Part shown: in pieces, positions 3,230-63,919 of the stretch | How positions within the stretch are numbered: position 1 is the first letter of the stretch | How the letters are laid out: each line of letters begins with the position of its first letter | Origin: Candidatus Binatia bacterium | GTDB lineage: Bacteria; Desulfobacterota; Binatia; UBA1149; JAJCZL01 | Length of the DNA: 64,000 nucleotides | Reading direction: 5' to 3' | Assembly (NCBI GenBank): GCA_028278325.1 | Contig: JANQEO010000361.1 | Coordinates: 202-64,201, forward strand | Position numbers and translations under genes: made by a program | Notes under the pieces: model-generated | The model's input: only the letters and a program-made list of their open reading frames with translations | The model's database searches: none | Told to the model about the DNA's origin: nothing

Positions 3230-4171
3230 GTGGGACCATCGCACAACCGACTACCAAACCTGATTATCTGCGGTGTCCACAAAGCCGGCACGACGTCGCT
3301 GTTCAGCTATCTTGGCATGCACCCGGACATATGCGCGTCATACAAGAAGGAAATCGACTTTTTCAAACCGCTGTCGTCAGGCGAGGCGTTGCCACCCGAG
3401 ACGGAGTACGCCGGGCACTTTTCACACTGTGGCAAGCAAAGTTATCGTCTGGAAGCAAGTCCAAGTTACCTTTACGGCAAGGAGTCGATCGCCGGGGCCA
3501 TCCAGCGGCAGCTCGTAAATCCGAGGACAATCGCCATCCTGCGTGACCCTACTGATCGATTCGTCTCGTACTACAGCCGGGCCGTTTCATATTCCCTGAT
3601 CAGCGATGTGTCGAGTTTTGACGAGTACGTTTCTCTGTGCCTGCAGGAATTTCATTCCGGCGAAACGAGCCAGCACGCCCGGAATGTCCGTGACGACATT
3701 TACGTCGACTATATCGGATCTTGGCAGCAATGCTTCGGCGAGAGTCTACGCATCGTCTTTTTCGGTCACTTGCGGAGTAATTCGGGCTCCGTCGTTCGCG
3801 ACATCTGCCGATGGCTCGATCTGGACCCCGGCATGTTCTCACCGGGTGATTCCTCCATCGAGAACCGCACGCTGCACTACCGCCGCAAGGCACTCCATCG
3901 CCGGGTGCAAAACTGGTACGTGCGGCACGAGACGTTCTGGCGGCGGCACTACAACCTGAAGCGGGTGCTTCGCCGGTTCTACAACATCGCCAATTGCGCG
4001 TCATCCGGGAGCTCGCTCGAGGTCGTAGACGAAGAAGGGACGGCGCGCCTGAGGCGTCCTTACGAGCCATACAGCCTGCGGCTGTCGTCTCTCCTACGGG
4101 ACCGTCGCTGTATGCAGTTGCCTGCCTGGCTCGACGAGGCCATGACCGGGAATACGCGTGTCCAACCCTGA
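3230..4171 (+). CDS. PAPS-dependent sulfotransferase
   Basis: NLIICGVHKAGTTSLFSYL matches the 5'-PSB loop (PKxGTT-like). ILRDPTDRFVSYYSR matches the 3'-PB motif (R-x-P-x-D-R-x-x-S). The gene overlaps the next gene by 14 nt, which suggests an operon. Confidence 0.85.
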   Translation: MGPSHNRLPNLIICGVHKAGTTSLFSYLGMHPDICASYKKEIDFFKPLSSGEALPPETEYAGHFSHCGKQSYRLEASPSYLYGKESIAGAIQRQLVNPRTIAILRDPTDRFVSYYSRAVSYSLISDVSSFDEYVSLCLQEFHSGETSQHARNVRDDIYVDYIGSWQQCFGESLRIVFFGHLRSNSGSVVRDICRWLDLDPGMFSPGDSSIENRTLHYRRKALHRRVQNWYVRHETFWRRHYNLKRVLRRFYNIANCASSGSSLEVVDEEGTARLRRPYEPYSLRLSSLLRDRRCMQLPAWLDEAMTGNTRVQP

Positions 4172-5399
4172 CGGGAGCGCTGTCTGCATCGTCTACACCG
4201 CGGATCCCCTGGGCGATACGACGGGTGGCATCGACTCGATCATTCGCGGAGTTCTGCAGTATGCGCCTCCGGACATCCGAATGTCTGTCGTCGGCGTGAC
4301 AACAGATCGCCAACAGCGGCCGGTGCGCCGATGGACGGCCTGCAGCATTGCCGGACGAGCTTTCGACTTCTACCCTGTCGTCGGAATCAGGAACTCTACG
4401 AGCCAGGCCCGGATCCCCGTCACGCTGCGCTTCCTGGCGGCACTCGGGCTGCGGCGGCCGGCGATAAACGCCGACGTGCTGGAGTTTCATCGAATAGAGC
4501 CTTGCCTTGCGTTCCTGAAAGATCCCCGTCCCAAGACCCTCGTCATGCACCAGAACATGGAAGTCATCCGCAATGCGGAATCGGACATCCGCTGGAAGCA
4601 CTGGCCCGGCCTGTATTTCGGCCTGGAAGATCGTCTGCTGCCGAAGTTCGAGTCCGTGTACTGCGTGCGCGAGGATGCGGCGAAAGCGTACCGGGATCGG
4701 TATCCTGAACTCGCGGATCGATTCTCGTTCACGCCCACCTGGGTGGACACCCGACTGTTCAGCGAACCGGGGGTCGAGCAGCGCCGGCAGCAGCACCGGG
4801 GGATCCGGGAAGAATTCGGGTTTTCCGAGGATTCGTTCGTCCTGGTCACCGTGGGCCGGCTCGACAAGCAGAAGAACCCGCTGCGGCTGCTGGAGGCATT
4901 CCGTCTGCTCCAGGAGCGCATGCCGGATGCCCGGCTCGTGTACGTAGGCGAAGGCGTCCTGCGCGCACCGCTCGAAGACAAGGTGAAACAACTCGGTCTC
5001 GGGCCTGCCGTGAAGCTTGCCGGCGCGAAGCCGCCCGCGCAGGTCTCCCGGTACCTACAGGGCGCGGATATGTTCGTCCTGTCCTCGGACTACGAGGGCA
5101 TGCCGATTTGCGTGCTGGAGGCGCTGGCGTCGGGCCTGCCGGTGGCCTCGACGGCGGTCGGCGAGGTACCGCGTGTCGTGAAGCCGGGCGCCAACGGCGA
5201 ACTGGCGGGCGAGCTGACGGCAGACGCGCTCGCCAGCGCCATCGGGCGGTGCCGGGACCGGCTGGAAAGCTATGTCGGTGCGCCCGCCGTAGCCTCGATC
5301 CGGGAATTCACGCCTGCGACCGTCCTCTCGCCGATTTATGACAACTACCGGAAACTGGCAGGCCGGGCGCACCGGCAAACCCAGGGGTCGGCGCGGTAG
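4158..5399 (+). CDS. Glycosyltransferase family 4 (GT-B, retaining)
   Basis: The C-terminal segment FVLSSDYEGMPICVLEALASGLPVASTAVGEVPRVV is the E-x7-E region typical of GT4. Confidence 0.85.
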   Translation: MSNPDGSAVCIVYTADPLGDTTGGIDSIIRGVLQYAPPDIRMSVVGVTTDRQQRPVRRWTACSIAGRAFDFYPVVGIRNSTSQARIPVTLRFLAALGLRRPAINADVLEFHRIEPCLAFLKDPRPKTLVMHQNMEVIRNAESDIRWKHWPGLYFGLEDRLLPKFESVYCVREDAAKAYRDRYPELADRFSFTPTWVDTRLFSEPGVEQRRQQHRGIREEFGFSEDSFVLVTVGRLDKQKNPLRLLEAFRLLQERMPDARLVYVGEGVLRAPLEDKVKQLGLGPAVKLAGAKPPAQVSRYLQGADMFVLSSDYEGMPICVLEALASGLPVASTAVGEVPRVVKPGANGELAGELTADALASAIGRCRDRLESYVGAPAVASIREFTPATVLSPIYDNYRKLAGRAHRQTQGSAR

Positions 5400-5687
5400 A
5401 AACGAATGCGGCGAGGCGTTCCCACTATGCGACCATTCTTGCGATCGTTCGAGGAGCATTGTGGTTACTATGTGACGAGAAGGATCGCAAAAATGGCCCG
5501 AAGTGGGGGCTCCGCAGATCGTTCGGCGTCTAAGGCGCAGACCCCTTGCCATACTGCTCCGGAAACCGATCAGGGCTTTCCATTCTGCGACCTACGCAGC
5601 CCCAACCGGGATAGATTCGACTACAATTCAGCGCCGATCGGCGTATGGGCAGACCGCCGCATCGCGCAGCCATGGCAATAGGAACAC

Positions 5688-6473
5688 ATGAAACCCCTGC
5701 AACTGGAAACGGAGAGCATTAACGGATATCCCGTCTGCCGGGAATCGGCGCCTCACATCATTGAATCGATCATGGCGCACATCGAGGATACCGGCCGCCC
5801 TTGCCGCTATTTCAGCTGCCTCAATCCGCACTCGGCGGAGATGGCGGCCTCGGAGCCGGCGTTTCACGACGCCTTGCTCAATTCCGACATCCTGACGCCG
5901 GACGGGGTCGGTGTGGTCATCGTATCCAGACTGACGGGCGGCAACATCCACCGGCGGGTAACCGGCATGGACATCTTCGAGACGCTGACGCGACGCATGG
6001 ACGCGAACGGCGGCATGAGCTGTTTCTTTCTCGGCTCCACGGAGGAAACGCTGGCGAAAATCCGCGCACGCATGGCTGCGGATTATCCGGGAGTGACCGT
6101 CGCCGGCACGCTCTCCCCACCGTTCAAACCCGCGTTCGATGCCGCCGACTCCGAGGAAATGCTCGGGCGCATAAACGAATCCGGCGCCGACGTGCTGTGG
6201 GTAGGACTGACCGCCCCGAAGCAGGAGAAATGGCTGCACGAGCATCGCGACCGGCTCGACGTCGCCTTTGCCGGCGCGATCGGCGCGGCCTTTGATTTCT
6301 ACGCGGGCAATATTCGACGGGCCGGTCCCGTCTTGCAGAACCTGGGGCTCGAATGGCTTCCGCGTCTGCTTCAGGAGCCGCGCCGGCTGTGGAGGCGCTC
6401 GCTTGTGTCGGCGCCCCGGTTTTTCATACGCAGCCTTCGTCATCGACCGTCGGAAACCCATGGCGGGAGATGA
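5688..6473 (+). CDS. WecB/TagA/CpsF-family glycosyltransferase (GT26, ManNAc/ManNAcA-type transferase)
   Basis: The product contains LNPHSAEMAASEPAFHDALLNSDILTPDGVGVV...FFLGSTEETL...GADVLWVGLTAPKQEKWL...GAAFDFYAGNIRRAP-like. This matches the characteristic GT26 layout. Confidence 0.85.
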   Translation: MKPLQLETESINGYPVCRESAPHIIESIMAHIEDTGRPCRYFSCLNPHSAEMAASEPAFHDALLNSDILTPDGVGVVIVSRLTGGNIHRRVTGMDIFETLTRRMDANGGMSCFFLGSTEETLAKIRARMAADYPGVTVAGTLSPPFKPAFDAADSEEMLGRINESGADVLWVGLTAPKQEKWLHEHRDRLDVAFAGAIGAAFDFYAGNIRRAGPVLQNLGLEWLPRLLQEPRRLWRRSLVSAPRFFIRSLRHRPSETHGGR

Positions 6474-6660
6474 GGAGAGTATCGGCTTGAGGGACGAACG
6501 GTCGCCGAGTGTTCATCATCGGCGGGTCCCGGACCGGCTCGGACGTGGATCCCAGTTCACTCGAACGCTGGAGAACCTCGCTGAATCCGCTGACGGCGGG
6601 GACGATCGAGCTGATGCATCCTTTCGCGCGGCGCCGCCTCGGCTATCGTCGGTGAACTGA

Positions 6661-8535
6661 ATGTGTGGCATCACCGGCATCTGGCGACGCAAGGTCGGGC
6701 CCGCAGACCTTCAGGGTGAGCTGGAAGAGTCGGTCGCATCCATGCGCCATCGCGGTCCGGACGACAACGGCATCTGGCAGAATGCCTCCGGGCTAGGGTT
6801 CGGATTCACACGCTTGTCGATTCTGGACCTGTCGGAACTCGGCCACCAGCCGATGATTTCTCCGGACGGACGTTACGTGCTCGTATTCAACGGCGAAGTC
6901 TATAACTTCGCCGAGATCCGCAGGGACCTTGTCGGCCTCGGACACAATTTCGCCGGCAGCGGGGATACCGAAGTAATCCTGCACGCCCTTGCGGAATGGG
7001 GCTCACAAGCTGTCGAGCGGTTTGTCGGCATGTTCGCATTTGCTATTTGGGATGAGCGCGAGCAGCGACTCGAACTGGTACGCGACCGCGCGGGCGTCAA
7101 GCCTCTGCACTACGGCTGGGACGGCGAGACGCTGTGTTTTGGATCCGAGTTGAAAGCGCTGCGAGCTTACCGGCACTGGCGCCCGGAGGTCGACCGGCAG
7201 GCACTGGGTGAATTTCTGCAATACGGCTATGTCGCCGGCGACCGCACGATCTACCGGGGTATCCGCAAGCTCGAGCCGGGACATCGGCTCGTCCTCGAAG
7301 CCGGCGGAGAACCGCGTCTGGAGCGCTACTGGTCCGTGGACGACGCAGTGCGGGATGCCGCGACGGGCAGCGATGCCGATCTCGAAGCGGAGCTCGAAGC
7401 CCTGCTCATCGAATCCTGCCGCCTGCGCATGGTCTCGGATGTGCCGGTCGGCGTGTTCTTGTCGGGCGGCGTCGATTCGTCGCTGGTCACCGCGCTGCTC
7501 GCCAAACACCACGACAGGGAGATCCGCACCTTCACTATCGGCTTTGGCGCGGACAGCCACGACGAATCGCAATGGGCAAAGAAGGTCGCCGATCACTGCG
7601 GTACGCGGCATACCGAGTACATATTGAGCAGCGACGAAGGCCTCTCGATTGCCAAGGATTGGGGCTCGCTGTTCGATGAACCGTTCGGCGACCCCTCCGG
7701 TATCCCGACACTGCTGGTCTCGAGGCTCGCGCGCGAGCAGGTGAAGGTCGTGTTGTCGGCCGACGGCGGCGACGAGTTGTTCAGCGGTTATCGTGTCTAC
7801 GACAGCGTGCTGGAAAGGATGCAGAGTCTGTCTCGTGTGCCCCGCTGGCTGGGCACCGCTGCTGCCGGCGCAACATCAAGTCTCCTCCCCGCTCTTTCCG
7901 GTCGGATCTCCGAGCGGCGGCACCGTCAGCTGCGCCATTTCGGGCAGATGATGGCAAGCCCGACTCCGGGCCGGGTCATGGACATCCGGCTATCGCACTG
8001 GCAACCCGCGGACGTGGACCGCCTGATCGACGGCTATCGGCCACTGCGTCCCCTGGCCGACGACTATCCGGGCCGCGCCGATCAGCAGATGAGCTTGTGG
8101 GATATTCACCACTACCTTCCCGAGGATATCCTGACCAAGGTGGACCGAACGACGATGGCGGTGAGCATGGAAGGGCGTGAACCCCTGCTCGATCATCGCC
8201 TGATGGAATTCGCGCTAGCACTGCCGCTGCATCTCCGGCGCGGCGAACTGGGGCCGAAACACCTGCTGAAGCGGATTCTGCACAGGCACGTGGCCCGCGA
8301 GCTGGTCGATCGCCCCAAGCAGGGTTTCGGCATTCCGCTGGATGACTGGTTGAAACGGGATCTCAGACCGCTGGTGCAGGAATACCTGGCGGCGGATCGA
8401 ATTCGCAACGCGGGCCTGTTCGACCCTGCGACCGTCCGCGAGACAGTCGAGGCTTTCTACCATGGACGGGCGACGCAGAGTACGCCGCTTTGGTTCCTTT
8501 TGGCCTTCGAGATGTGGCGCGAACAGTGGGGCTGA
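6661..8535 (+). CDS. asnB: Asparagine synthase (glutamine-hydrolysing)-family amidotransferase, of the type associated with EPS loci
   Basis: The N-terminal MCGITGIW carries the Ntn catalytic Cys2. VGVFLSGGVDSS is the PP-loop. The length is 624 aa. Amidotransferases of this type are known companions of XrtA/PEP-CTERM EPS loci. Confidence 0.9.
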   Translation: MCGITGIWRRKVGPADLQGELEESVASMRHRGPDDNGIWQNASGLGFGFTRLSILDLSELGHQPMISPDGRYVLVFNGEVYNFAEIRRDLVGLGHNFAGSGDTEVILHALAEWGSQAVERFVGMFAFAIWDEREQRLELVRDRAGVKPLHYGWDGETLCFGSELKALRAYRHWRPEVDRQALGEFLQYGYVAGDRTIYRGIRKLEPGHRLVLEAGGEPRLERYWSVDDAVRDAATGSDADLEAELEALLIESCRLRMVSDVPVGVFLSGGVDSSLVTALLAKHHDREIRTFTIGFGADSHDESQWAKKVADHCGTRHTEYILSSDEGLSIAKDWGSLFDEPFGDPSGIPTLLVSRLAREQVKVVLSADGGDELFSGYRVYDSVLERMQSLSRVPRWLGTAAAGATSSLLPALSGRISERRHRQLRHFGQMMASPTPGRVMDIRLSHWQPADVDRLIDGYRPLRPLADDYPGRADQQMSLWDIHHYLPEDILTKVDRTTMAVSMEGREPLLDHRLMEFALALPLHLRRGELGPKHLLKRILHRHVARELVDRPKQGFGIPLDDWLKRDLRPLVQEYLAADRIRNAGLFDPATVRETVEAFYHGRATQSTPLWFLLAFEMWREQWG

Positions 8536-8548
8536 GCCCGGACGATCG

Positions 8549-9679
8549 TCAACTGCGAAACAGCGTCTTGTAGCCAAGCAACATGCTTTCGAATCGGAAT
8601 CGCTGGATGACCCGTTCTCGCGCGGCATAGCCTATTCGCCGTCGCAGAGACGGGGAGTCGTAGAGCTCGGAGAGAATTCGGGTCAACGCGTCGCAGTCTC
8701 CGGATTCGAACAGGAATCCGCTCTCACGATTCTCGACCATCTCGCTGGCACCGCCGATGTTGCTCAGCACAACCGGTCTCTCAAGGGACATAGCCTCCAG
8801 TGCTGCGTTAGAAAACGTCTCGACGGCGCGAGATGGCAACACGAACATGTCCATGGCCGAAAGTGCGGGCCTGACGTCAGATAGCACCCCGGCGAACACC
8901 ACTTTGTCAGACAATCCCGATTGCTGCGCAACGGCTGCCAGTGCAGGTTTCTCGGCACCTTCCCCCACAAGTAGTAGGTACGCGTCGCGGCCGGCGTCGT
9001 TCAGTGCCGCGACCGCACGGATCAGCAACGCGAAGTCCTTTTCCGGCGCCAGCCGCCCAACGCCGCCGACCACCACGACTCCATCGGGAATCGAGAGGTC
9101 GGCACGAAAGGCCCTTGAACTCGCATCCGATATTTCGGGCGAAAAGCGCTCCACGTCCACGCCGTTGTAGATGAACGAGGATCTCTCCGCGCTAAGCCGG
9201 TACTTACGAGTCCAGGTCTGCAGCTGAGCCTCGCATCCGAAGACAATACGATCGCAACGGCGAAGGAACGGCGCGTACAAGTGTCCCCATATCCACTGCC
9301 CGTCGACGAACTCGGTGGTATTGACCATGGCGACCGCCCTGCCTCGTTTCGGCCGCCGATGCCGCGCGGCCGGCAGCACGTAGAGCACGGGATAGAAGTT
9401 GATCGAGACGAGCGTGTCGTAATCTTTGTCGGCAAGCCGCCTCAGACGCCTAAGGCTGTTCGTCGAGTACTTGCTGCGACGCTGCAGATTGTAGACAGGC
9501 ACGTCCGCGTCGATTCGTTCCAGCAGCGTCTCAGGCGGGTTCAGGTAAGCAATTCCTATCGGAAACCCTTGCCGATTCAGTGCGTTAGCAATACTAACGA
9601 TCTTCGTTTCGGAACCGCCAACTTCCAATGTTCCCAGCACAAACAGTACAGACGGCTCGCCTGTCATTCCTCTCACCAA
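8549..9679 (-). CDS. Glycosyltransferase family 4
   Basis: The product contains VLFVLGTLEVGGSE near the N-terminus and FVLPSRAVETFSNAALEAMSLERPVVLSNIGGASEMV as the E-x7-E region. The ATG at 9667 is an alternative start. Confidence 0.85.
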   Translation of the reverse strand: MVRGMTGEPSVLFVLGTLEVGGSETKIVSIANALNRQGFPIGIAYLNPPETLLERIDADVPVYNLQRRSKYSTNSLRRLRRLADKDYDTLVSINFYPVLYVLPAARHRRPKRGRAVAMVNTTEFVDGQWIWGHLYAPFLRRCDRIVFGCEAQLQTWTRKYRLSAERSSFIYNGVDVERFSPEISDASSRAFRADLSIPDGVVVVGGVGRLAPEKDFALLIRAVAALNDAGRDAYLLLVGEGAEKPALAAVAQQSGLSDKVVFAGVLSDVRPALSAMDMFVLPSRAVETFSNAALEAMSLERPVVLSNIGGASEMVENRESGFLFESGDCDALTRILSELYDSPSLRRRIGYAARERVIQRFRFESMLLGYKTLFRS

Positions 9680-9709
9680 TCCGCAGCCGAACTATGCGAC
9701 AGTGTATCG

Positions 9710-10864
9710 CTAAACACGGTGGTTTCTGGCATCCGCCATCAGCGCCGCCAGCAGCGACTCGTACCGATTGAGCACAGAGGCGGGCGCGTGGTGTCGCTCC
9801 GCATATGCCTTGCCCCGTCGTTCCCACTCCGATCGCGTCGCAGCATCGGCCGTTAGCGAGTCCAGGGTCCCAACCATCTCCGCAGGCGTATCCACCCGAA
9901 TACCCACTGGATCGCCATTCAGCCGCGCGCCGCTGTCGATGAAGGAAACCGTTGCCCTGCCACGCGCCCATGCCTGCAGAAACGTGTTCGGGAAGCCCTC
10001 GCTATCAGATGTATTGACGAACAGCATTGCATTGTCGAAATAGTGTCCGATCTCTGCGTACGGAACGAAGCCCTCGAAACGCAGATTCGGCAACGTGGCT
10101 GCACGCGAGCTCACCTGCTCGTAGAGAGCGCCTTCGCCGATGCTCGGGCCACCGACCATCACGAATTTAAGGTCCGGCAGTGCCTCCACGATGTCCAGGA
10201 AGACGTCCGGGCGCTTTACCTGTCGTATCATGCCGACCCACAGCACGTACGTACCGTGGGTACGGGCCGAGTTCGACCCTGCCGGTTGCATGTTCGGGAT
10301 CAGCTCGCTGCCGCGTCCGAACTCCTCAAGAACGTGGTTTGCCTGTTCTTCGGACTGCACGACGACCCGATCCACGTGCCGGGCACCGTAGCGAAACAAC
10401 CAGCGGTCGCGCCAGAAGCGAATCTTGGTCCGTCCTGCGACCGCGAACACAGACTTCCTGCGGTGCCGACGGCAAAAGGCCGCCGTCACGCCGGTCAGCA
10501 TGCTGGCAGCTCGCTGGTAATAGATGTCGGCATCGGCGAGTTTCATACTTCGCCAAAGACCGGCCAGCCTCGGCCAAAAAAACCGCAGCACCGGCAGGCC
10601 CGCGTCCGGGCGAAATGCGCGATGGACGGTAACGCCGTCAATCGTGCACGCTTCCGGCTGTCCGTAGTCGAGACAAATCATGCTCACCGGGTAGCCTCGT
10701 TCCGCCAAGCCCTTGGCGATTATCACCTGCTGCAATTCGGCGCCGCCGGCGAAGCGGATGGACGAGTCTTGCGCCAGCAGCGGATAGGCATGGGGTGCGA
10801 CGAAACACACGCTCGGTCGGCGACCGGCCGACGCTTGCCGTGCGCCAGCCCCGGCGCTTGTCAT
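9710..10864 (-). CDS. Glycosyltransferase family 4
   Basis: The product contains VCFVAPHAYPLL...GGAELQ at the N-terminus and FVNTSDSEGFPNTFLQAWARG in the C-terminal region. An ATGA start/stop overlap with the upstream gene lies at 10861-10864. Confidence 0.8.
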   Translation of the reverse strand: MTSAGAGARQASAGRRPSVCFVAPHAYPLLAQDSSIRFAGGAELQQVIIAKGLAERGYPVSMICLDYGQPEACTIDGVTVHRAFRPDAGLPVLRFFWPRLAGLWRSMKLADADIYYQRAASMLTGVTAAFCRRHRRKSVFAVAGRTKIRFWRDRWLFRYGARHVDRVVVQSEEQANHVLEEFGRGSELIPNMQPAGSNSARTHGTYVLWVGMIRQVKRPDVFLDIVEALPDLKFVMVGGPSIGEGALYEQVSSRAATLPNLRFEGFVPYAEIGHYFDNAMLFVNTSDSEGFPNTFLQAWARGRATVSFIDSGARLNGDPVGIRVDTPAEMVGTLDSLTADAATRSEWERRGKAYAERHHAPASVLNRYESLLAALMADARNHRV

Positions 10865-12180: not shown

Positions 12181-12222
12181 CGCGTTAGCTCCTGTGGGCA
12201 GGCGGTCCGTTCTGGAATCGTA

Positions 12223-15620: not shown

Positions 15621-16046
15621 ATTAGCCCAGCGAATAAATTCGTTCGATTCGGTCCACGCGGAATACGCCTAATCACGCGATCATTGATCGCTGTACAACT
15701 TCAATGCACTGCTGTATTCGATCCCATATCGCTACCTTGCGACGCAATCTTGGAGGATCTCGAAGGTCTGTGACAGAACACACTGTTGCGGCCTGACCCG
15801 CGTACCAGCTCTAGTGATTTCCAGGACTATACGTACCACGCGAACTATGCTCCAAGCTGCTGTTGTCATAATCTACAAAAGGCTGTGTGGTTGCTGATTG
15901 GAGTAGTGACGTCGCCAGGCGCAGACCTCGTCACGCGCATGCTTAGAGGCAGCTAAGGAAATGCTGCTTGAGAAACGGGTATTGAAAGCTAGCATCGAGC
16001 TCGAAAACGAATGCACTCCAGCCAGAGTACCGAAAAGTGCCAAGTC

Positions 16047-48805: not shown

Positions 48806-48810
48806 GCAGC

Positions 48811-51862: not shown

Positions 51863-51908
51863 GTTCGCTGCCGGCGGTGAACCTCGGGCATTCAGTCGCC
51901 GCGTTTCA

Positions 51909-56074: not shown

Positions 56075-56222
56075 TACTGACTCCTCACCCGTATTGCAAC
56101 ACCGGGCGCAACGGCAGTTGGCGCGGTCACCGGTCGGCCGTTCTCGGCACCCGCCGTTAAGTCAACGGGCCAGGCCATGACTCGATGACCTCGGCTGCAT
56201 CGGGCGACGCAGGCTCGACGCT

Positions 56223-59081
56223 TCAGTTGTTAAAGGTTTCAACCGCGGCCACGGCAATGGCTGCCTGATATAGAATCTGAGTAACCTGAGCCCAAAACGT
56301 CAGCGGTCGAATTCGGTCGGTTTCCAGCGGGACGACGATCGTGTCGCCGGGCCGAATGTCGGAGCGCCCGGTGCTTCGCCGGCCAAACCATCGGGACCGA
56401 TGGCCTGCCTCCACTGCACCGCTGGCTCGAACGATATAGATCAGCTTGCTGTCCGCCCTGCGCGTCAAGCCGCCGCTCTTCGCGATATAGTGATCCCGGG
56501 AGAGGTCCGGTTCGTAGAGATGCGATGTGTTCTGCTGTGTCTCGCCGATGACCGTGACGGATTGAGCCTGCTTCGGTACGAGCAATTGATCGCCATCACG
56601 GAGCTCCAGGGGAAGTCCGGCCTCACGGTTCTGTGTAATGCCCTCGAGGTCGATGACGAGGCGGCCCACCGCTTCCGTGTCACGCAGTTGACCGAGGAGC
56701 GCCTGACCGGTTTCCAGTGTCTCGCTGCCGGTGGTGTCCACTGACTCGAGCGACAGTGACGCAAGATCCGCCTGCAATCGCCCCGCAAGCAACTCGATCT
56801 GCTCCTGCTCCTGCCTCCTGAGGGACTCCCTCAGGAATATCGCGCCTTCGGGGAAGGCCGCGTCCGTGAGTCCGCCCGCGCGCTCGAGCAGCTCCGCAAG
56901 CGTCTCCCCACGCCTTATCCGGTACTCTCCGGGAAACGTCACCTCGCCCTCCAGCGTGACCGTCCAGAGGGTATCCCACTCGGGCAGGCCGCTGATGCGC
57001 AGGTTGTCGTGCTCGGTGAGCAATGCGTCTTTCGTGTCGTCACCACCAAGGATAGCGCCGAGATCGATTTCCTGAATGTCGGTAGAGCGGAACTCGTCAT
57101 TGACGACGTCGTATCGGACCAACTCGGCCTTGACCGCATAGGCCTCTTCCGACAGATCGCCCGCAGCCCGGATCAGGTCGCTGACGCGCATGCCGGGTTC
57201 GAGCGGATAGGTGCCCGGAGCCTTTACGCGACCGGAAACGGTCACGATCGAATTCGGATTGCCGTAGCGCGATTGAAGCTCGAGCTCGTCGAGAATGGGT
57301 TGGATCACGCGCTGGCGACCGAATTCGAGACTGAAAACGTAGATCCTGTCTCTGGGCCGCAGTTCAGTGTTGTCGGACGATGCCCGGTTCTCGAGCGCCT
57401 GCGCCAGGTCGGCCGAGGCGACACTGATCGCCCGGTTGTCCGGGTCTTCGCGGCGGATCAGAACGTAGCCCTTGTCGGCCCCGGGACGCAGCATCTGCAC
57501 GGATTGGATGACATCCGTCAGCCGCATGCCCGGCCGCCACTCGTACGGACCCTGCCGATACACGTGTCCGACGAGCTCGACCGTTTGCTGGTATTCGGGC
57601 AACACGTTCGGTACGAAGACCGCATCGCCGGGCCGGGATGTCATCGAGCGCAGCTCGGCCGAACTGGCATCGACAGACACCACCACGCGTCCCGCCCCGG
57701 AGCCGATCCGCTCCACTCGGGCGCCTTCTGGAAAAGCATCGGCGGTAAACCCGCCGGCCAGGGCGATGACGTCCGCGACCGACGTCTGTCCCCTGGCCTC
57801 GTAGATCGCCGGGCGCTTGACGGCGCCGTCGACGCTGACCTGAGGCCCTACCGGCGGCACGAAGATGACGTCACCCGGCTGCAGGCGCACGTCATCTGTC
57901 GTATCCCCGCGCAACAGCAGGTCGTAGAGATCGAGACGTGTTACGACCTCGCCCTGGCGCTTGAGTTGTATGTCCCGCAGCGTGCCGATCTCACTGATGC
58001 CGCCGGCGGCATAGATCGCGCTGCTGATCGTCGCCAGGCTGCCGACGACGTAGGAACCGGGCCGATTCGCGTCTCCGAGCACGAATACGCGGATGGTCCG
58101 CAGCTGCCCCATGGTTGCGCTGACCTGCGTGCCGATCAGCATCTGCTCGACACGCGTATTGAGATCCACCCGGAATTCGGAGAACGGCAGTCCGGCAACC
58201 GTAATCGGTCCGATCTCGGGCAGGTTCAGCACGCCGTCCCGGCTGACCTCGAATTCGTAAATGCCGTTTACGTTGCCGAAGAGCTGCACGCGCACGCTGT
58301 CACCAGGTCCGAGCACGTAGTCCGGGGGCACCGGGCCGGTTATCACCGGTTCGAAATTCGCCTCAACCGATTCGAAGACGTCGTAGCCGAACGGCTCCAG
58401 CGCGGCGGTACCGGTCGCCGTCGTCTGCAGGATCGCCACCGTGATTTCGAAGGGCCGCAAAGCCCGCTCGGCACCCAGCCGAAGCTCGATCTCGGCCGCC
58501 GACAGGCCGCGAACCGGAACGACCGCCACGCCGGGCAATTCGAGCTGACCGGCCTCGTCCACCCGATAGACGCCGCTGCCCTCCAGCTCGGCGAGTGCAG
58601 GATCTTCCGCGATTCGGATCTCCGGAACCGCCGGTCGTAATTCGGCCAGCTGGAACTGAATGACCAGCGTGGATCCCGGCTCGGCGCGGGCCGTCTCCCC
58701 GACCTCGCCTTCCTGGCTTTCGGCGTCCGGCACCGACTGAGGATCGTTCCGCCCCGCTTGTTCGTTCAGCGACGAAAAGGGCTGTTGGGCCCCGTTCGTG
58801 CTCCGGCCCTGGGCCTCACGAAGCGCCTGCATGGCCTGCTGACGCTGCGCAGGCGGCAACTGATTCAGCATGCGCTGTTGCTCAGGCGACAGCTGTATCG
58901 ATTGCGCACCGGCACGAGGCAATCCGCCCAGCAGACCGGCGATTGCCAGGCAGACGAGAATCAAGTGCCGTGAAAAACCACCGCTCGACACGGAGCCCCG
59001 CCCCTCTTCAGACCAAGTGTATGCCCAACTCGGAGCCGGCAACCGACGCAGCGTCGGATTGAGGCCCCGAAAGCGCGGCAT
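56223..59081 (-). CDS. Very large outer-membrane polysaccharide export (OPX/Wza-family) protein with multiple SLBB repeats
   Basis: The signal-like segment is LILVCLAIAGLLGGLPRAGAQ. The Poly_export motif is YVLGPGDSVRVQLFGNVNG...VSRDGVLNLPEIGPITVAGL. At least six SLBB-like units follow: VLGDANRPGSYVV, VDGAVKRPAIYEA, LVGHVYRQGPYEW, VSGRVKAPGTYPL, LEGEVTFPGEYRI and VIGETQQNTSHLY. The tail is hydrophobic or amphipathic: TFWAQVTQILYQAAIAVAAVETF. Confidence 0.85.
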   Translation of the reverse strand: MPRFRGLNPTLRRLPAPSWAYTWSEEGRGSVSSGGFSRHLILVCLAIAGLLGGLPRAGAQSIQLSPEQQRMLNQLPPAQRQQAMQALREAQGRSTNGAQQPFSSLNEQAGRNDPQSVPDAESQEGEVGETARAEPGSTLVIQFQLAELRPAVPEIRIAEDPALAELEGSGVYRVDEAGQLELPGVAVVPVRGLSAAEIELRLGAERALRPFEITVAILQTTATGTAALEPFGYDVFESVEANFEPVITGPVPPDYVLGPGDSVRVQLFGNVNGIYEFEVSRDGVLNLPEIGPITVAGLPFSEFRVDLNTRVEQMLIGTQVSATMGQLRTIRVFVLGDANRPGSYVVGSLATISSAIYAAGGISEIGTLRDIQLKRQGEVVTRLDLYDLLLRGDTTDDVRLQPGDVIFVPPVGPQVSVDGAVKRPAIYEARGQTSVADVIALAGGFTADAFPEGARVERIGSGAGRVVVSVDASSAELRSMTSRPGDAVFVPNVLPEYQQTVELVGHVYRQGPYEWRPGMRLTDVIQSVQMLRPGADKGYVLIRREDPDNRAISVASADLAQALENRASSDNTELRPRDRIYVFSLEFGRQRVIQPILDELELQSRYGNPNSIVTVSGRVKAPGTYPLEPGMRVSDLIRAAGDLSEEAYAVKAELVRYDVVNDEFRSTDIQEIDLGAILGGDDTKDALLTEHDNLRISGLPEWDTLWTVTLEGEVTFPGEYRIRRGETLAELLERAGGLTDAAFPEGAIFLRESLRRQEQEQIELLAGRLQADLASLSLESVDTTGSETLETGQALLGQLRDTEAVGRLVIDLEGITQNREAGLPLELRDGDQLLVPKQAQSVTVIGETQQNTSHLYEPDLSRDHYIAKSGGLTRRADSKLIYIVRASGAVEAGHRSRWFGRRSTGRSDIRPGDTIVVPLETDRIRPLTFWAQVTQILYQAAIAVAAVETFNN

Positions 59082-59137
59082 TGTACCAGCACTGGCGCGC
59101 TAAGGTACTGAAAATCGGGACTTTGATCACGGTTCGG

Positions 59138-60784
59138 CTAATAGCTGCTGCGCCATTGGATGAAGAATCGCACGTCGTCATCGGTGTCGCCGCCAAGCTC
59201 GTTCTCTATGCGTTCGAATCCGACTCCGGCGGTGATCTCGCCGAAACTGAAGACTCGGGAATGGCGGACGTCGATGCTGACGATGTCCTGCTGCGTCGGC
59301 GTCAGGCTTTGCCGGTCGTCGGGCGGGCCACCGGTATTCAGTTCACCGATCCGAATCGTCGCTGCCCACTCGGTTTCGTCTTCGTCGATCGCGATGAGGC
59401 CCGCCGAGACGACCCTCGCGTCATTGTCCGCCGGATGGCCGACGCTGCGGCCGCGGTACCGGTATCCGGTCCGATAGATGCTGTTGTTGTAAGCGCAGTT
59501 GAATCTCTCGCTGGATTCGTAGAACTGGCAGCTGGTGCCGGCGAATTCTCCGAACCAGCGGTACGACCAGCGGTCGCGGAACAGCCCGGTGCCCTCGACG
59601 CCGACCTGCCCCAGATAGCGGCTCGGAAAACCGCCCGCTTCGTCTTCGCCGATGAACTGGCCGTAGAACGCGACCGGAACGTCGAGAATACGGGTCGCCC
59701 AACGAACGTCGAAGCCGGCCAGCTGGTTGCCGGGCTCGTTCTCGCGCGAAATGTCGTCGTCGCCGACGTTGTCGCGGCCGAGAAACAGATCGATGAACGC
59801 GTCGGAGTTGCAGGGCCTGTCCTCGCCGCACCATTGCGCTGTCCGCGAGAGCCCGATCTCCAGCGACGGGATCGGCCGGAAACTGAATCGCAGACCGAAG
59901 AACTGCGCGTCCGGCACGAACCGATCGCTTTCCATTTGCCCGAAGTGCATGGAGAGGTCCCACGGGCCGAGCCAGGACAGCAAGGGTGTCGCGAAGGGGT
60001 CGGTGAAGTTCCGGTCGATGGAGATCGCGGGAATCGGCCGCGCGTTGTTGGACAGGATCAGGCTGCCGTCCCAGCCCGGGCCCCACCACCGGTCCAGCGT
60101 GTTGACGCCTATCGACCAGTTGCCGACAGAGGCAGCAATGACCGAGCGATCGGCGCGGAATTCCTCGAACTCGTCAGCCACGTCCAGCCACTGGCCGTTG
60201 ATCGAAGCTGTGAACCAGTCACCCGTATAGGTGAAGCCGCCGCTCAGCTCGCCGCGGCCGCGCGGCGTGTCCTCGAACGAACGGATGCGCTTGGGCTTCT
60301 CAGCCCCGCTGACGCGGGCGTTGAAAAAGGCCTCGCCGCTGCGTGTGTCCCAGCTCGCACGTGCTTTGACACGTGCCAGCGCATCGACCACGTCCCGCGG
60401 CGTGTCGCCCGCCAGGTCGAACGCATTGAGATCGGCGAGTATTGGCCCCCACGCCAGCGGCCAGGTCGTGGTCGGCCCCGTAATGACACCGTGGTCCGCG
60501 AGCCGCTGGATGTCGTTGCGCAGCGCCGTATCGCCAGCGCCGATGAACGGGCTGGCGTAGACGCTGCCGGCCACTAGCGGCATCAGCAGTGCCCATGTCA
60601 CAGCGACGAAAATCGGTCTTCGAATCGGGCCGATAATGAGACTCTCCTTGTTGCGGATTCGCAAACGAACGTCCAAAGTGCGGCAGATGCTAACAATTTT
60701 GGCGAAATCGTCGTAGTCGAAATCTCGTCTGAAACAGAGATCGAACGAGCGGACGACACCGCGTCGATCCCGGCGACCCTTCAA
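59138..60784 (-). CDS. wzi: Wzi-family capsule assembly outer-membrane protein (start uncertain)
   Basis: After a signal-like VAVTWALLMPLVAGSVYA comes FIGAGDTALRNDIQRLADHGVITGPTTTWPLAWGPILADL. This matches the Wzi N-terminal pattern LRxDLxWLxDRGVI....TWPL.W. The rest is rich in aromatic-terminated beta-strands and ends in WRSSY. Confidence 0.7.
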   Translation of the reverse strand: MKGRRDRRGVVRSFDLCFRRDFDYDDFAKIVSICRTLDVRLRIRNKESLIIGPIRRPIFVAVTWALLMPLVAGSVYASPFIGAGDTALRNDIQRLADHGVITGPTTTWPLAWGPILADLNAFDLAGDTPRDVVDALARVKARASWDTRSGEAFFNARVSGAEKPKRIRSFEDTPRGRGELSGGFTYTGDWFTASINGQWLDVADEFEEFRADRSVIAASVGNWSIGVNTLDRWWGPGWDGSLILSNNARPIPAISIDRNFTDPFATPLLSWLGPWDLSMHFGQMESDRFVPDAQFFGLRFSFRPIPSLEIGLSRTAQWCGEDRPCNSDAFIDLFLGRDNVGDDDISRENEPGNQLAGFDVRWATRILDVPVAFYGQFIGEDEAGGFPSRYLGQVGVEGTGLFRDRWSYRWFGEFAGTSCQFYESSERFNCAYNNSIYRTGYRYRGRSVGHPADNDARVVSAGLIAIDEDETEWAATIRIGELNTGGPPDDRQSLTPTQQDIVSIDVRHSRVFSFGEITAGVGFERIENELGGDTDDDVRFFIQWRSSY

Positions 60785-60790
60785 AATCCC

Positions 60791-62131
60791 ATGCTCGAGA
60801 AGCCTGCACAGGAAACGGAGCGAGTAAGCTCGGAACCAACCGGTGCGGCACGAAGCCTTGCCAGCACCGTGCTTCGCAGCGGCGCGGGCAGTTTGGTCGT
60901 CAAGCTCCTTTCCCTGACCCTGGGATTTCTGGTCGTCGTGGTACTTGCGCGCAGTCTGGGGCCGGACGAATACGGCGTGTATACCTACGCCTACGCCCTG
61001 ATCGCCGCGCTGAGCATCCCGGCGACGTTCGGCGTCCCGACACTGGTGGTTCGGGAGACGGCGAAGGCGCAGGCGAAGCGGGACTGGGCGACGATGCTGG
61101 GCCTTTGGCGCTGGTCCCGATCGCTCATGCTGCGCATCTCGATGCCGCTGGCCGTCTTGTCCGCTGTCGTCGCCTGGCTCGTGTCGGACCGGTTCGCTCC
61201 GAACGGCCTTACCGTATTTCTCATTGCGCTCGCCTTTCTGCCATTGAACTCGCTCGGTGCCCTGCGTAGCGCACAGCTGAGGGGGCTGAACTTCACCGTT
61301 TGGGGACAGATACCCGAGCTGATCATCCGGCCCGGACTACTCGCCCTGCTGGCCGGCGGCACCTACTGGTGGCTGGCTCCGCGCCAACTGACCGCGCCGG
61401 ATGCGATGTGGCTGCATGCCGGCGCGGCATTCGTCGCCGTCGTGCTGGGCTCCATTGCGTTGAAGGTGCTGCAACCCCTCCAGGCAACGGGCGGAACCTA
61501 CGAAGCCGAGCACAAACGTGACTGGTTCCGCGCCGTACTGCCGCTCGCACTCGTCTCCGGCATGCAGACGATCAACAACAACCTCGACGTGCTGATGCTA
61601 GGACTTTACTATCCTGCCGCAGAGGTCGGTATTCTGAAGGTCGTCCTTCAATTCGGTATGCTCGTCGTGCTCGGGCTCCAGGCGATAAACGTCGTTGTCG
61701 CACCGCAGATTGCAAAGCTCCACAGTAACGGTGACTACGGCGGCTTGCGCAGGATAGCGGCGCTCAGTGCCGGCGTTGCACTGCTCACGGCCGTGCCGGT
61801 GACCGGGGTCTTCCTGCTGTTCGGCAGTCAGATACTCGCGTTCGTGTTTGGCGAGGCCTACACGGCCGGCAGTACGGCACTGATGATCATCGCTCTCGGT
61901 CAAACGGCGAACGCCGGCGCCGGCTCGGTCGGCATCATGCTAAGCATGACGGGCAACGAACGACTATCGGCGCGCGGCGTCGCAATAGCAACGGTTGCCA
62001 ATCTCGTCCTGAATCTCGTCCTGATACCGCCATACGGCTTGAACGGTGCCGCGGCAGCGACTGCGGTAACATTGGTCGTCTGGAACGTCCTGTTGTGGCG
62101 CTACGTCCGGCGGAACGTCTGGACACGATAG
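60791..62131 (+). CDS. Second Wzx-like flippase / polysaccharide biosynthesis protein (MOP superfamily)
   Basis: The 446 aa product has about 12 TM segments. The N-terminus reads GSLVVKLLSLTLGFLVVVVLARSLGPDEYGVY. The C-terminal region contains GLNGAAAATAVTLVVWNVLLW. Confidence 0.75.
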   Translation: MLEKPAQETERVSSEPTGAARSLASTVLRSGAGSLVVKLLSLTLGFLVVVVLARSLGPDEYGVYTYAYALIAALSIPATFGVPTLVVRETAKAQAKRDWATMLGLWRWSRSLMLRISMPLAVLSAVVAWLVSDRFAPNGLTVFLIALAFLPLNSLGALRSAQLRGLNFTVWGQIPELIIRPGLLALLAGGTYWWLAPRQLTAPDAMWLHAGAAFVAVVLGSIALKVLQPLQATGGTYEAEHKRDWFRAVLPLALVSGMQTINNNLDVLMLGLYYPAAEVGILKVVLQFGMLVVLGLQAINVVVAPQIAKLHSNGDYGGLRRIAALSAGVALLTAVPVTGVFLLFGSQILAFVFGEAYTAGSTALMIIALGQTANAGAGSVGIMLSMTGNERLSARGVAIATVANLVLNLVLIPPYGLNGAAAATAVTLVVWNVLLWRYVRRNVWTR

Positions 62132-62208
62132 CCGGCATCCGGCCTGTCTGGAACGACCTTCACGAAATCGATCAGAGCAGCCGAGCACCGAAAGGAAGAT
62201 CCGACCCA

Positions 62209-63060
62209 ATGCACGCCAGCGACGATGCAACCGAGGAATCCGAGTCCGCGTGGGCCCGGATGAGCCGGATGGCTCTAACGGCTTGGCAGAACGCCCCGAA
62301 TTTCCTGGTCCCGCCCCTCGAAACCGACAAGGGTTTCTGCTTCGTATGCGGTTGCGGCCACAGCGGCACGACGTTGCTCGCAGCGCGCCTGGGCAATCAT
62401 CCGAACGTCTATCTCGTGGGGCGGGAATCGGGGGCGTTCCGGCCGCAGAACGGCGCGCTCTGCTCCCGGCAGATTTCGACCGAGTGGGTGTTCCAGGCTT
62501 CCGCCGCCGGCAAGAGGGTCATCGTCGAGAAGACGCCCAGACACGTCCACTCCGTTCGCGCCATCAGGCGGGTGTTGCCGGCCGCAAAACTGATCCTGAT
62601 TACACGCAATCCGCTGGATACGGTGGCTTCTCTGCGGAAGCGGCTCGGGACTCTGCAAGCCAGCGTTTCCCGATGGCAAACCGACAACAGGCAGGTCCTC
62701 CGCTTGCGAAGGCAACCCAACACGCTGCTTCTCCGCTACGAAGACCTGACCGGCAGTCCGGAGTCCAGCCTCCGGGAGGCTATAGAGTTTCTCGATCTTG
62801 GCTGGAACGCGGCGGTCCTCGAGGCCGGAAGATCGGCCTACGACCGGGTGGATCACTCCGGCAACATGAAGACCCGTGCCGCGCAGGTGCGCGAGGAGAT
62901 TCGGCCCCGAATAGGGACATGGAACGAGGCGCTCACGCCGGATGAAGCTCGCCACGTCTGGAAATCGACCGAGGAGCTGGCCGCCGAACTCGGTTACCGG
63001 GCCGACGGCTTCAATCCCGACGGGCTGGTCGGGGACTTGGCGCAGGCACAGACGGACTGA
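62209..63060 (+). CDS. PAPS-dependent sulfotransferase
   Basis: I chose the ATG at 62209, with AAAGGAAG upstream, which avoids overlap with the flippase. FVCGCGHSGTTLLAARLG is the 5'-PSB P-loop. LITRNPLDTVASLRKR is the 3'-PB motif. Confidence 0.8.
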   Translation: MHASDDATEESESAWARMSRMALTAWQNAPNFLVPPLETDKGFCFVCGCGHSGTTLLAARLGNHPNVYLVGRESGAFRPQNGALCSRQISTEWVFQASAAGKRVIVEKTPRHVHSVRAIRRVLPAAKLILITRNPLDTVASLRKRLGTLQASVSRWQTDNRQVLRLRRQPNTLLLRYEDLTGSPESSLREAIEFLDLGWNAAVLEAGRSAYDRVDHSGNMKTRAAQVREEIRPRIGTWNEALTPDEARHVWKSTEELAAELGYRADGFNPDGLVGDLAQAQTD

Positions 63061-63118
63061 GGGGCCGCCGGCCGATTTCTCTCGGCTCTAGCCCGTACCT
63101 GTCACCGATCCAGGGGCG

Positions 63119-63919
63119 CTAATCGGAGGTCCCGGACGATATCGCCTGTCGACGCATTCGGGATGCTTGGACGGCCTGCTCGAATAGTGCGTCGAGCTGC
63201 GCGAAGAGTTCCCGGTCGATATCGGCCACCGCCGATTTTGGCTGACGGGGGTTCCTCTGCGGCAATCGGATATCGACACCGACGAAACGCGAGATCTCGT
63301 CGGTACGTTCCCAAAGCTCGTCGAAGGGAATCATGAACACGTCATCGGCTCGCACCGACATCCACGCGTTCACCTGGGATTCGAAGTTGAGCACGTCGGC
63401 ACGGAATAGATCAGATACAAACCCATGCGCGCGCAGATGGTGAAGGTGTTTCTCGAACCAGGCGTTGCCCCTCGATCGGGCCGTTCGCACGACGGACTGC
63501 GCAGACTCCAGCGGAGGGCCGAATACGAACAGATACTTGCCGTCCGGGAGCGTGCCGTCCTGCGGGAAATCGTGGGTCTTGAGAACAGGATAATCGAGGC
63601 CGTCTATGTCCGCGAGGCGGTCTGCGAACTCCATCGCGACATACCGCAGGGCTCGCATGAACAACGGCGGTAACCGTCGCCCGAAGCGATGCGCAATCAG
63701 ACCGTCGGCGATGCTGTCACACAGCAGGGTCGAGCCGCTCCGGCCGGTACTGGCGACCACGATGGGCGGCCTGCCAACACCGAAGAGGACTCTCGAAGAC
63801 ACTCGCTTCAAGCGGCTTCCGACTTCGACCAACAGTCGATTCAGCGTGTATGCAAGCGCCGTCAGACGATTACGAAGGCCCATCCTGGCCTCGTACCAGC
63901 GCGTCAAACCATCGTTCAC
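63119..63919 (-). CDS. Sulfotransferase-like P-loop protein (Stf0-like)
   Basis: The product contains IVVASTGRSGSTLLCDSI as the 5'-PSB-type loop and YPVLKTHDFP. It has no other recognisable domain and lies convergent with the 62209 sulfotransferase. Confidence 0.55.
   Translation of the reverse strand: MNDGLTRWYEARMGLRNRLTALAYTLNRLLVEVGSRLKRVSSRVLFGVGRPPIVVASTGRSGSTLLCDSIADGLIAHRFGRRLPPLFMRALRYVAMEFADRLADIDGLDYPVLKTHDFPQDGTLPDGKYLFVFGPPLESAQSVVRTARSRGNAWFEKHLHHLRAHGFVSDLFRADVLNFESQVNAWMSVRADDVFMIPFDELWERTDEISRFVGVDIRLPQRNPRQPKSAVADIDRELFAQLDALFEQAVQASRMRRQAISSGTSD

Follow-up and report, generated by a model that had tools for sequence, protein, structure and literature searches.

Does this bacterium carry a set of enzymes for sulfating its surface polysaccharide, and would such a set act on one polymer or on more than one? 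The question is raised by a 64-kb stretch of contig JANQEO010000361.1 from a Candidatus Binatia bacterium (64,000 nucleotides, hereafter the window), which covers the greater part of a region of about 65 kb for surface-polysaccharide biosynthesis. A sequence-only reading of the window had singled out four genes with sulfotransferase motifs and had predicted from them a multiply sulfated exopolysaccharide (EPS). The four genes, here called ST1 to ST4, were found where that reading had placed them, and all the peptides quoted for them were present in their translations:

3230-4171, plus strand: ST1, heparan-sulfate-type (NDST/3-OST-like) sulfotransferase (Pfam, PDB sequence matches)
14892-15620, minus strand: ST2, Sulfotransfer_2-like sulfotransferase in a low-GC island (Pfam, homologues)
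62209-63060, plus strand: ST3, Sulfotransfer_3 (NoeE/TPST-like) sulfotransferase (Pfam, PDB, NCBIfam)
63119-64000 (gene to about 64735), minus strand: ST4, C-terminal sulfotransferase-like domain plus linker helix of a fusion protein (gene call on Logan contig L011, AlphaFold model)

The four products are sulfotransferase-fold proteins of different sequence families: one PF00685-like, one PF03567-like, one PF13469-like and one belonging to a separate family nearest to PF13469. As predicted from its genes, the locus probably makes one or more sulfated polysaccharides.

ST1 matched the Pfam family Sulfotransfer_1 with 40.5 bits against a cut-off of 22, and its translation contains the peptides CGVHKAGTTSL and RDPTDRFVSYY. 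A comparison with PDB sequences returned the sulfotransferase domain of NDST1 (1nst, E=1.1e-9) as well as 3-OSTs. The 5'-phosphosulfate-binding (PSB) loop of ST1, HKAGTT, carries Lys, its 3'-phosphate-binding (PB) motif, RDPTDRFVS, carries Arg and Ser, and the Glu of its LEASPSY segment aligns with FEKSANY of 1nst at the catalytic-base position. The 14-nt overlap of ST1 with the next gene, which encodes a GT4 glycosyltransferase (GT), suggests that both are co-translated.

ST3 was matched by Sulfotransfer_3 (76.1 bits, cut-off 27) and also by Sulfotransfer_1 (39.7 bits). Its translation contains GCGHSGTTLL and TRNPLDTVASL, the latter including the PB motif RNPLDTVAS. The gene starts 77 nt downstream of the second of two flippase genes, and its coordinates agree with an independent gene call on contig L011. 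In NCBIfam, its best match was a partial one to NoeE (E=2.6e-15, 56 bits against a cut-off of 500). Its closest solved relatives among the PDB sequences were the tyrosylprotein sulfotransferases TPST1 and TPST2 (E of about 1e-5), and it also matched the sulfotransferase domain of a CurM-type polyketide synthase. The segments GCGHSGTT, EKTPRHVH and RNPLDxxxS were conserved in 11 of 13 metagenomic relatives (loci L015-L027), and genes for DegT, Ugd and further sulfotransferases occur near those of ST3 relatives. The product of L015:3909-5426, one of the relatives, has 505 amino acids; its sulfotransferase domain is C-terminal, and its 290-residue N-terminal part matches no Pfam family.

ST2 aligned with positions 3-250 of the 252 positions of the Sulfotransfer_2 profile, with 22.5 bits against a cut-off of 22, and contains the peptides VPKCASNSIE and VREPLSWLNSHF. 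A word-indexed search returned 19 relatives, 14 of which matched PF03567 (best E=2e-7). In the family alignment, PKCASNS, RH and VREPxSWLxSWYRFR were conserved, that is, a PSB loop and a PB motif in the style of Sulfotransfer_2. K17 is nearly invariant, whereas H43, R73 and S81 are invariant. Since the homologues begin at MLIS, translation of ST2 probably starts at the ATG at 15617.

The reading frame of ST4 is open to the end of the window, and here the sequence-only reading, which had given the gene as 63119-63919, had to be corrected. Contig L011, which is 100% identical to the window from 59720 to 64000 (all 4281 nt), carries the complete gene. It encodes a protein of 538 amino acids, corresponding to 63119 to about 64735 of the window, so that the GTG at 63919 is not the start. 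The peptide STGRSGSTLL is present in the translation. The full-length protein gave no Pfam match at all. Because ST4 by itself fails the profiles, its classification needed evidence from its family and from structure. Nine relatives were found by word-indexed search, and 852 representatives at E <=1e-3 by exhaustive profile search. Sulfotransfer_3 was matched by seven of ten family members (E down to 7e-6), and one matched Sulfotransfer_1. ASTGRSGST, KTH and the Ser of (G)DPLESAxS were invariant in the aligned sets of 10 and 19 sequences; in the numbering of the window fragment the invariant residues are R60 (GRSGST), H116 (KTH) and S142 (PB helix). When the family profile was compared with the PDB, the best match was oestrogen sulfotransferase, which was not significant (E=0.042), with the P-loop, KTH and PB segments in register.

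The AlphaFold (AF2) model of ST4 reached a predicted local distance difference test score (pLDDT) of 89.5 and a predicted TM-score (pTM) of 0.83. It places Arg60 between strand E53-57 and helix H63-79, and Ser142 in the helix H136-150 that follows strand E128-133. In a Foldseek search of the PDB with this model, the top 27 matches were all sulfotransferases (E from 1.4e-4), among them Teg14, LGS1, 3rnl, Teg12, NDST and 3-OSTs; a UMP/CMP kinase stood at rank 28. A 2024 review defines the sulfotransferase family by a Lys or Arg in the PSB loop, a Ser in the PB helix and a beta-sheet core, and lists NodH and Stf0 as carrying Arg in the PSB loop (PMC11625862). The ST4 domain, as modelled, agrees with this definition in its PSB Arg, its PB-helix Ser and its predicted fold.

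The N-terminal part of the fusion protein, about 270 amino acids, carries the segments PVLFLIFNRP, LEDDC and WGWATWRDRW, and an alignment showed the same two-domain layout in at least 18 other proteins of 470-570 amino acids. The fold of this part was judged from a homologue of 44% identity, P0036 (AF2 model, pLDDT 91, pTM 0.89), whose N-terminal domain matched POMGnT1/GnT-I (E of about 7e-9) and also GnT-II in Foldseek. The EDD motif within LEDDC, at the aligned metal/nucleotide-sugar position, is kept in the window's protein. Sequence profiles of GNT-I stayed below significance (14.1 bits against 25.4 for one relative; E=0.44 for the PDB profile comparison with 1fo9), so that the assignment to the GT-A type rests on the predicted fold. 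ST4 is thus predicted to be the sulfotransferase half of a GT-A::sulfotransferase fusion with a GnT-I-like GT domain, and this fusion ties the ST4 domain to glycan synthesis. The fusion family is the most novel element of the locus. In the literature searched, we found no description of GT-sulfotransferase domain fusions and no papers on sulfotransferases in PEP-CTERM systems, which is not proof of novelty. Just upstream of the fusion gene and beyond the window, L011 carries an FkbM-type methyltransferase gene. In the fusion relatives P0046, P0049, P0051 and P0063 the EDD (DXD) motif is lost and the sulfotransferase motifs are kept; in some members, therefore, the GT domain may now serve for binding without being catalytic.

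Comparison of the four proteins with each other agreed with the earlier view that they are not recent duplicates and represent at least three sub-types. Only ST1 and ST3 detected each other (E of about 5e-6), while ST2 and ST4 detected no other protein of the window when phmmer and two family hidden Markov models were run on 442 stop-to-stop open reading frames (ORFs) of at least 70 amino acids. The same search revealed no fifth sulfotransferase. Comparisons between families by hhalign (A1 against A2, A1 against ST3 and A2 against ST1) gave probabilities of at most 4%. The Pfam profile check that had been proposed for these genes was also run: ST1, ST2 and ST3 passed the gathering cut-offs, and ST4 alone failed, being reached only through its relatives. 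The two candidates that the sequence-only reading had considered weaker, ST2 and ST4, were not left without any sulfotransferase profile, since ST2 lies at the cut-off and ST4 is covered by seven of ten family members and by its predicted fold. No transmembrane (TM) segment was predicted in any of the four proteins by a TM scan, which points to a soluble, cytoplasmic location.

Gene content was established from Pfam and NCBIfam scans of about 45 ORFs judged to be likely genes. Polysaccharide genes run across the window without interruption, and no housekeeping genes were found among those scanned. Apart from the four sulfotransferase-type genes, the window contains:

2-14168, mixed strands: left assembly module (Pfam, NCBIfam, TM scan)
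2-1141, minus strand: WecA-like priming transferase (Pfam; NCBIfam WecA-like match below cut-off)
1874-2947, minus strand: gene without an assigned family
4158-5399: GT4 (Pfam)
5688-6473: WecG/TagA GT (Pfam)
6661-8535: Asn-synthase-type amidotransferase (Pfam; TIGR03108-like match below cut-off)
8549-10864, minus strand: two GT4 (Pfam)
10861-12180, minus strand: Wzy_C polymerase/ligase (Pfam)
12223-14168, minus strand: two GT2 with C-terminal TM helices (Pfam, TM scan)
16047-17996, minus strand: 12-TM GT-C/PMT_2-like protein (Pfam, TM scan)
18464-20056, minus strand: beta-helix/pectate-lyase-like protein, probable ATG at 20008 (Pfam)
20040-20127, minus strand: cyclic di-GMP (c-di-GMP)-I riboswitch (Rfam RF01051)
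20443-21243, minus strand: S-adenosylmethionine (SAM) methyltransferase (Pfam)
21340-35454: decoration and regulation block (Pfam, NCBIfam)
21340-22548, 30487-32262 and 32271-33371: three clear FemAB-like Acetyltransf_6 proteins (Pfam)
22593-24272: GINT1_N-like protein of 559 amino acids, matching only the N-terminal domain of eukaryotic GINT1
25059-26369: GT4 (Pfam)
26454-27728: acyl-CoA-ligase-like (acyl-CoA/adenylate-forming) protein (Pfam, NCBIfam)
27725-28963: FemAB-like Acetyltransf_6 protein, weak match
28960-30483: Wzx-type flippase 1 (Pfam)
33409-35454: PrsK histidine kinase (TIGR02916)
35479-46011: sugar-nucleotide block with PGM/PMM, ManC, Fcl and Gmd (GDP-fucose), Ugd (UDP-GlcA), CapD/PglF-type 4,6-dehydratase and WecB 2-epimerase (Pfam)
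46573-62131, mixed strands: right assembly and export module (Pfam, NCBIfam)
46573-47744, plus strand: decayed ATP-binding cassette (ABC) exporter (Pfam)
47573-48805, minus strand: GT4 (Pfam)
48811-50703, minus strand: heparinase II/III-like protein (Pfam)
50759-51862: GT4 (Pfam)
51909-52778, minus strand: short GT4, 289 amino acids (Pfam)
53650-54240: small Bac_transf priming transferase, PglC-like (Pfam)
54638-56074: DegT aminotransferase (Pfam)
56223-59081: Wza/outer-membrane polysaccharide export (OPX) protein, 952 amino acids (Pfam, NCBIfam)
59138-60784: Wzi (Pfam, NCBIfam)
60791-62131: Wzx flippase 2 (Pfam)

This content is that of a Wzx/Wzy-type locus. It includes priming transferases of two kinds (Glycos_transf_4/WecA-like at 2-1141 and Bac_transf/PglC-like at 53650-54240), two Polysacc_synt flippases, a Wzy_C protein (53 bits), a Wza with Poly_export/SLBB domains and a Wzi; one Wza/Wzi set is recognisable. 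The region is linked to an XrtA/PEP-CTERM system; its PrsK was confirmed, with 583 bits for the equivalog model TIGR02916 (cut-off 300). No exosortase (XrtA) was found among the window genes scanned. The amidotransferase, whose best named relative comes from a Woeseiaceae metagenome-assembled genome (MAG; 67% identity), reached 538.8 with the XrtA-type model TIGR03108 (cut-off 816.9), and the FemAB-like genes reached 22.9 with TIGR03019 (cut-off 260), so that both are relatives and not equivalogs. The sugar-nucleotide block covers GDP-Man, GDP-Fuc and UDP-GlcA. FemAB-like genes and the acyl-CoA-ligase-like gene are grouped around flippase 1 (21340-33371), so that the polymer may be decorated with aminoacyl or acyl groups.

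Some genes of the right module are irregular. Of the decayed ABC exporter, pieces of two domains are left in different frames: a fragment of ABC_membrane (46573-47172) and the first half of ABC_tran (47034-47744). The opposite-strand GT4 gene at 47573-48805 overlaps this remnant. The heparinase II/III-like protein has no predicted TM segment, and its gene lies between two GT4 genes in biosynthetic, not degradative, surroundings; it may act as a lyase, in trimming or in an epimerase-like manner. In the short GT4 of 51909-52778, the C-terminal Glycos_transf_1 half ends at about profile position 85-100, and the gene may be truncated or a pseudogene.

ST2 lies in a low-GC island (about 14000-22000), together with the genes for the GT-C/PMT_2-like protein, the beta-helix protein and the SAM methyltransferase; the GC content of the island is 0.51-0.55 compared to 0.61 for the window, the value for ST2 itself being 0.51. 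The island looks horizontally acquired; neither a tRNA nor a long repeat was found at its edges. The intergenic gaps flanking ST2 are unusually long (724 and 427 nt). The riboswitch in this island was matched over the full model (1-87) with 79.9 bits against a gathering score of 35 (E=4.4e-14); the probable ATG of the beta-helix gene follows about 30 nt downstream of it. Downstream of that gene, on the same strand, follow the GT-C-like gene and then ST2, with gaps of 468 and 427 nt. Given the riboswitch and this gene order, c-di-GMP may control a module made up of the beta-helix, GT-C-like and ST2 genes.

Similar gene associations were observed elsewhere. In nine GTDB genomes, ST4 homologues adjoin Gmd, DegT, Wzx, GT4 and CapD genes, in one locus together with a second sulfotransferase; Gammaproteobacteria (a Spiribacter MAG and others), a Polyangiaceae MAG and a deltaproteobacterium are among the hosts. 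EPS loci that hold ST2 homologues were found to encode between one and three sulfotransferases in addition. In one of them, from an unrelated environmental genome (L012; ENA ERZ25039494 contig_3225, 678 kb), four sulfotransferase genes lie within 9 kb (7385-16333), with GT4 genes between them; Wza-, Wzz- and kinase-like genes immediately precede this group. These four, all confirmed by Pfam, are a Sulfotransfer_1/3, an ST2 homologue and two Sulfotransfer_3 genes. In L013, an ST2 homologue is accompanied by genes for a GT4, a DegT aminotransferase, a deacetylase, a FemAB-like protein, a Sulfotransfer_3 protein and a beta-helix protein. Collectively, multi-sulfotransferase polysaccharide loci recur in environmental bacteria, and one other locus also has four. 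The earlier statement that bacterial sulfated polysaccharides are reported only sporadically is therefore an understatement, as comparable loci, each with two to four sulfotransferases, are met repeatedly in genomes from the environment.

We consider it likely, as the best explanation of the whole, that the four-family sulfotransferase set in this Wzx/Wzy region sulfates lipid-linked repeat units, probably on two assembly lines. The sulfate donor would be cytoplasmic 3'-phosphoadenosine 5'-phosphosulfate (PAPS), for which the synthesis genes would lie in another part of the genome, and each enzyme would transfer sulfate to a specific hydroxyl or amine of a sugar. The acceptor would be the undecaprenyl-diphosphate-linked repeat unit at the inner membrane face, and sulfation would precede flipping by Wzx, polymerisation by Wzy and outer-membrane export by Wza/Wzi. 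Such cytoplasmic sulfation before flipping is the scheme proposed for synechan (PMC8205485). In the fusion protein, addition of a sugar and sulfation of that sugar or of its neighbour would probably take place within one complex. Because two flippases and two priming transferases are present, the sulfotransferases are most likely divided between two assembly lines, ST1 and ST2 serving the left one and ST3 and ST4 the right one. The outcome would be one or two sulfated, heavily decorated acidic heteropolysaccharides.

Several observations count against this explanation. As the sequence-only reading had noted, the window seems to lack PAPS synthesis: neither an APS kinase nor an ATP sulfurylase domain was detected by Pfam among its 45 or so likely genes. 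No Wzz or tyrosine-kinase domain of a polysaccharide co-polymerase (PCP)/Wzc chain-length regulator was detected among the window genes by Pfam, and the corresponding gene may be located beyond the window ends; the number of recognisable Wzy proteins is one. With regard to ST2, the margin over the Pfam cut-off is only 0.5 bit, its family profile found no relevant solved structure among the PDB sequences, and its co-expression with the locus is uncertain in view of the low-GC island and the flanking gaps of 430-720 nt. The ST4 fragment alone matched only Stf0, over the P-loop (E=0.1, 12.6 bits against 22). Its PB motif, FGxPLESAxS, is without the usual Arg, and its Foldseek TM-scores were low (0.32-0.41), partly because of the long linker helix in the fragment. 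The nearest solved relatives of ST3 sulfate protein tyrosine, and its PSB loop, GCGHSGTT, has His in place of the usual catalytic Lys or Arg. Among the 13 metagenomic relatives this His is found in 11 and Arg in two. Decay of ST3 was considered on account of the His and rejected, since the residue is conserved across relatives; it looks like a conserved subfamily variant. Finally, the organism is known only from metagenome contigs.

With these points in mind, we weighed three other explanations. If all four enzymes acted on a single repeat unit, the product would be one EPS sulfated at up to four positions. The 64 kb of uninterrupted polysaccharide genes free of housekeeping genes would agree with this, as would the single recognisable Wzy and Wza/Wzi set, the packing of four sulfotransferases into 9 kb beside one Wza-Wzz-kinase set in L012, and the equality of sulfotransferase number and sulfate number in synechan. 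Such a single polymer nevertheless appears somewhat unlikely to us, since the window has two Wzx flippases and two different primers (WecA-like and PglC-like), ST1/ST2 and ST3/ST4 are separated by 47-60 kb and belong to different transcription units, ST2 lies in a compositionally foreign island, and the right module contains decayed genes. Accordingly, the part of the earlier prediction that places four sulfotransferase-fold genes among polysaccharide genes stands, whereas the step to a single polymer does not follow from the genes: a pair of sulfated products is no less likely than one multiply sulfated polymer.

It is unlikely, in our judgement, that at least one of the enzymes, especially ST3 and possibly ST2, sulfates a target other than an exported polysaccharide, such as tyrosines or glycans of PEP-CTERM proteins, a glycolipid, a lipo-oligosaccharide or lipopolysaccharide. 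ST3 directly follows a Wzx flippase gene in a locus with GDP-fucose genes, DegT, Ugd and further sulfotransferase genes are found in the neighbourhood of its relatives, ST1 resembles glycosaminoglycan sulfotransferases, and ST4 is fused to a GT. The possibility comes from the similarity of ST3 to tyrosylprotein sulfotransferases (E of about 1e-5) and, in NCBIfam, to the Nod-factor fucose sulfotransferase NoeE, from the XrtA/PEP-CTERM setting (PrsK), a system that sorts a protein family, and from the fact that characterised bacterial sulfotransferases act mostly on glycolipids (PMC11625862). Quite improbable, in turn, is a set of only two or three working enzymes in which ST4, and perhaps ST2, would be divergent P-loop proteins with a kinase-like, structural or regulatory role. 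The lack of a significant Pfam match and of the PB Arg in ST4, its low TM-scores with a UMP/CMP kinase at rank 28, the marginal Pfam score of ST2, the between-family hhalign probabilities of at most 4% and the loss of DXD from the GT domain of some fusion relatives, by which domain decay does occur in the family, would all be compatible with that. They are opposed by the invariance of the PSB Arg, the KTH His and the PB Ser in both aligned ST4 sets, by the sulfotransferase profiles matched in seven of ten ST4 relatives and 14 of 19 ST2 relatives, by the 27 best fold matches of ST4, all of them sulfotransferases, and by the occurrence of both families in polysaccharide loci beside other sulfotransferases.

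Within the preferred explanation, that of a four-family set sulfating lipid-linked repeat units, a more far-reaching proposal can be made, which we offer tentatively, as a possibility rather than an expectation. The fusion would represent an undescribed bifunctional bacterial family, with a GnT-I-like GT-A domain and a divergent sulfotransferase domain (PSB Arg, no PB Arg), that adds a sugar to the lipid-linked repeat unit and sulfates it in one step, and with three more, unrelated sulfotransferases the locus would provide a biofilm former of the PEP-CTERM type, outside the cyanobacteria, with a glycosaminoglycan-like matrix polymer of dense sulfation. If this were true, it would provide a soluble bacterial set of carbohydrate sulfotransferases for engineered sulfated polysaccharides. 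Heparin, fucoidan-like polymers and other sulfated polysaccharides are of value and still come from animals and algae; to our knowledge, soluble bacterial carbohydrate sulfotransferases are few and mostly uncharacterised. Four different sulfotransferases in one locus, one of them fused to its presumptive partner GT, are therefore candidates for enzyme discovery, of a value limited by the fact that function is predicted and the organism uncultured. Together with the other environmental contigs, the locus adds to the signs that matrix polymers bearing sulfate may occur more widely outside cyanobacteria than published accounts say. In the synechan paper, such polymers are attributed exclusively to cyanobacteria (PMC8205485), and a 2024 review counted six bacterial genera for sulfated polymers.

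Bacterial sulfated polysaccharides with cluster-encoded sulfotransferases are already documented in synechan and in the Cobetia capsule. The xss cluster of Synechocystis sp. PCC 6803, which produces synechan, encodes two sulfotransferases for two sulfates per repeat (Maeda et al., 2021; PMC8205485). Like the window, it is a Wzx/Wzy-type EPS cluster with many GTs, more than one sulfotransferase from distinct subfamilies and a PAPS supply encoded elsewhere. The window differs from it in having four sulfotransferase-type genes, one of them fused to a GT, in its XrtA/PEP-CTERM (PrsK) setting and non-cyanobacterial host, and in having no XssQ/R/S-type regulators among its genes; its product, moreover, is predicted from genes and is not an isolated polymer. 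The gammaproteobacterium Cobetia marina KMM 1449 has a sulfated capsule with one or more sulfotransferase genes in a cluster of about 70 genes (PMC11766843). As in the window, sulfotransferase genes lie inside a large surface-polysaccharide cluster, and the sulfate of the Cobetia capsule is structurally proven. That cluster depends on an ABC transporter (kpsETMD/kpsSC) and has its own cysNC/cysD/cysQ and sulfate permease genes, unlike the Wzx/Wzy-type window, in which only a decayed ABC exporter and no PAPS genes were found.

The rhizobial and mycobacterial enzymes NodH, NoeE, KpsS and Stf0 use PAPS and belong to the Sulfotransfer_3/Stf0 type; their PSB loop has Arg, not Lys (RxG), and ST4 agrees with them in its GRSG. 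They act on lipo-oligosaccharides or glycolipids and are encoded outside large Wzx/Wzy loci, in contrast to the genes of the window. ST3 partly matches the NoeE model, yet its score, far below the cut-off, does not make it a NoeE orthologue, and its subfamily has His at the position of the Arg. GnT-I/POMGnT1 (GT13) and the N-terminal domain of the fusion share the predicted GT-A fold and an aligned EDD motif, whereas the fusion is bacterial, is joined to a sulfotransferase domain and shows no significant sequence-profile match. The sulfotransferase domain of animal NDST and the 3-OSTs resemble ST1 by direct sequence match, in which PSB, PB and the E-x-S/T-x-x-Y Glu coincide; they differ in that identity is low and ST1 is a soluble bacterial protein without a Golgi stem. 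NDST is itself a two-domain enzyme in which a sugar-modifying domain is joined to a sulfotransferase, an arrangement that parallels the GT-sulfotransferase fusion of the window.

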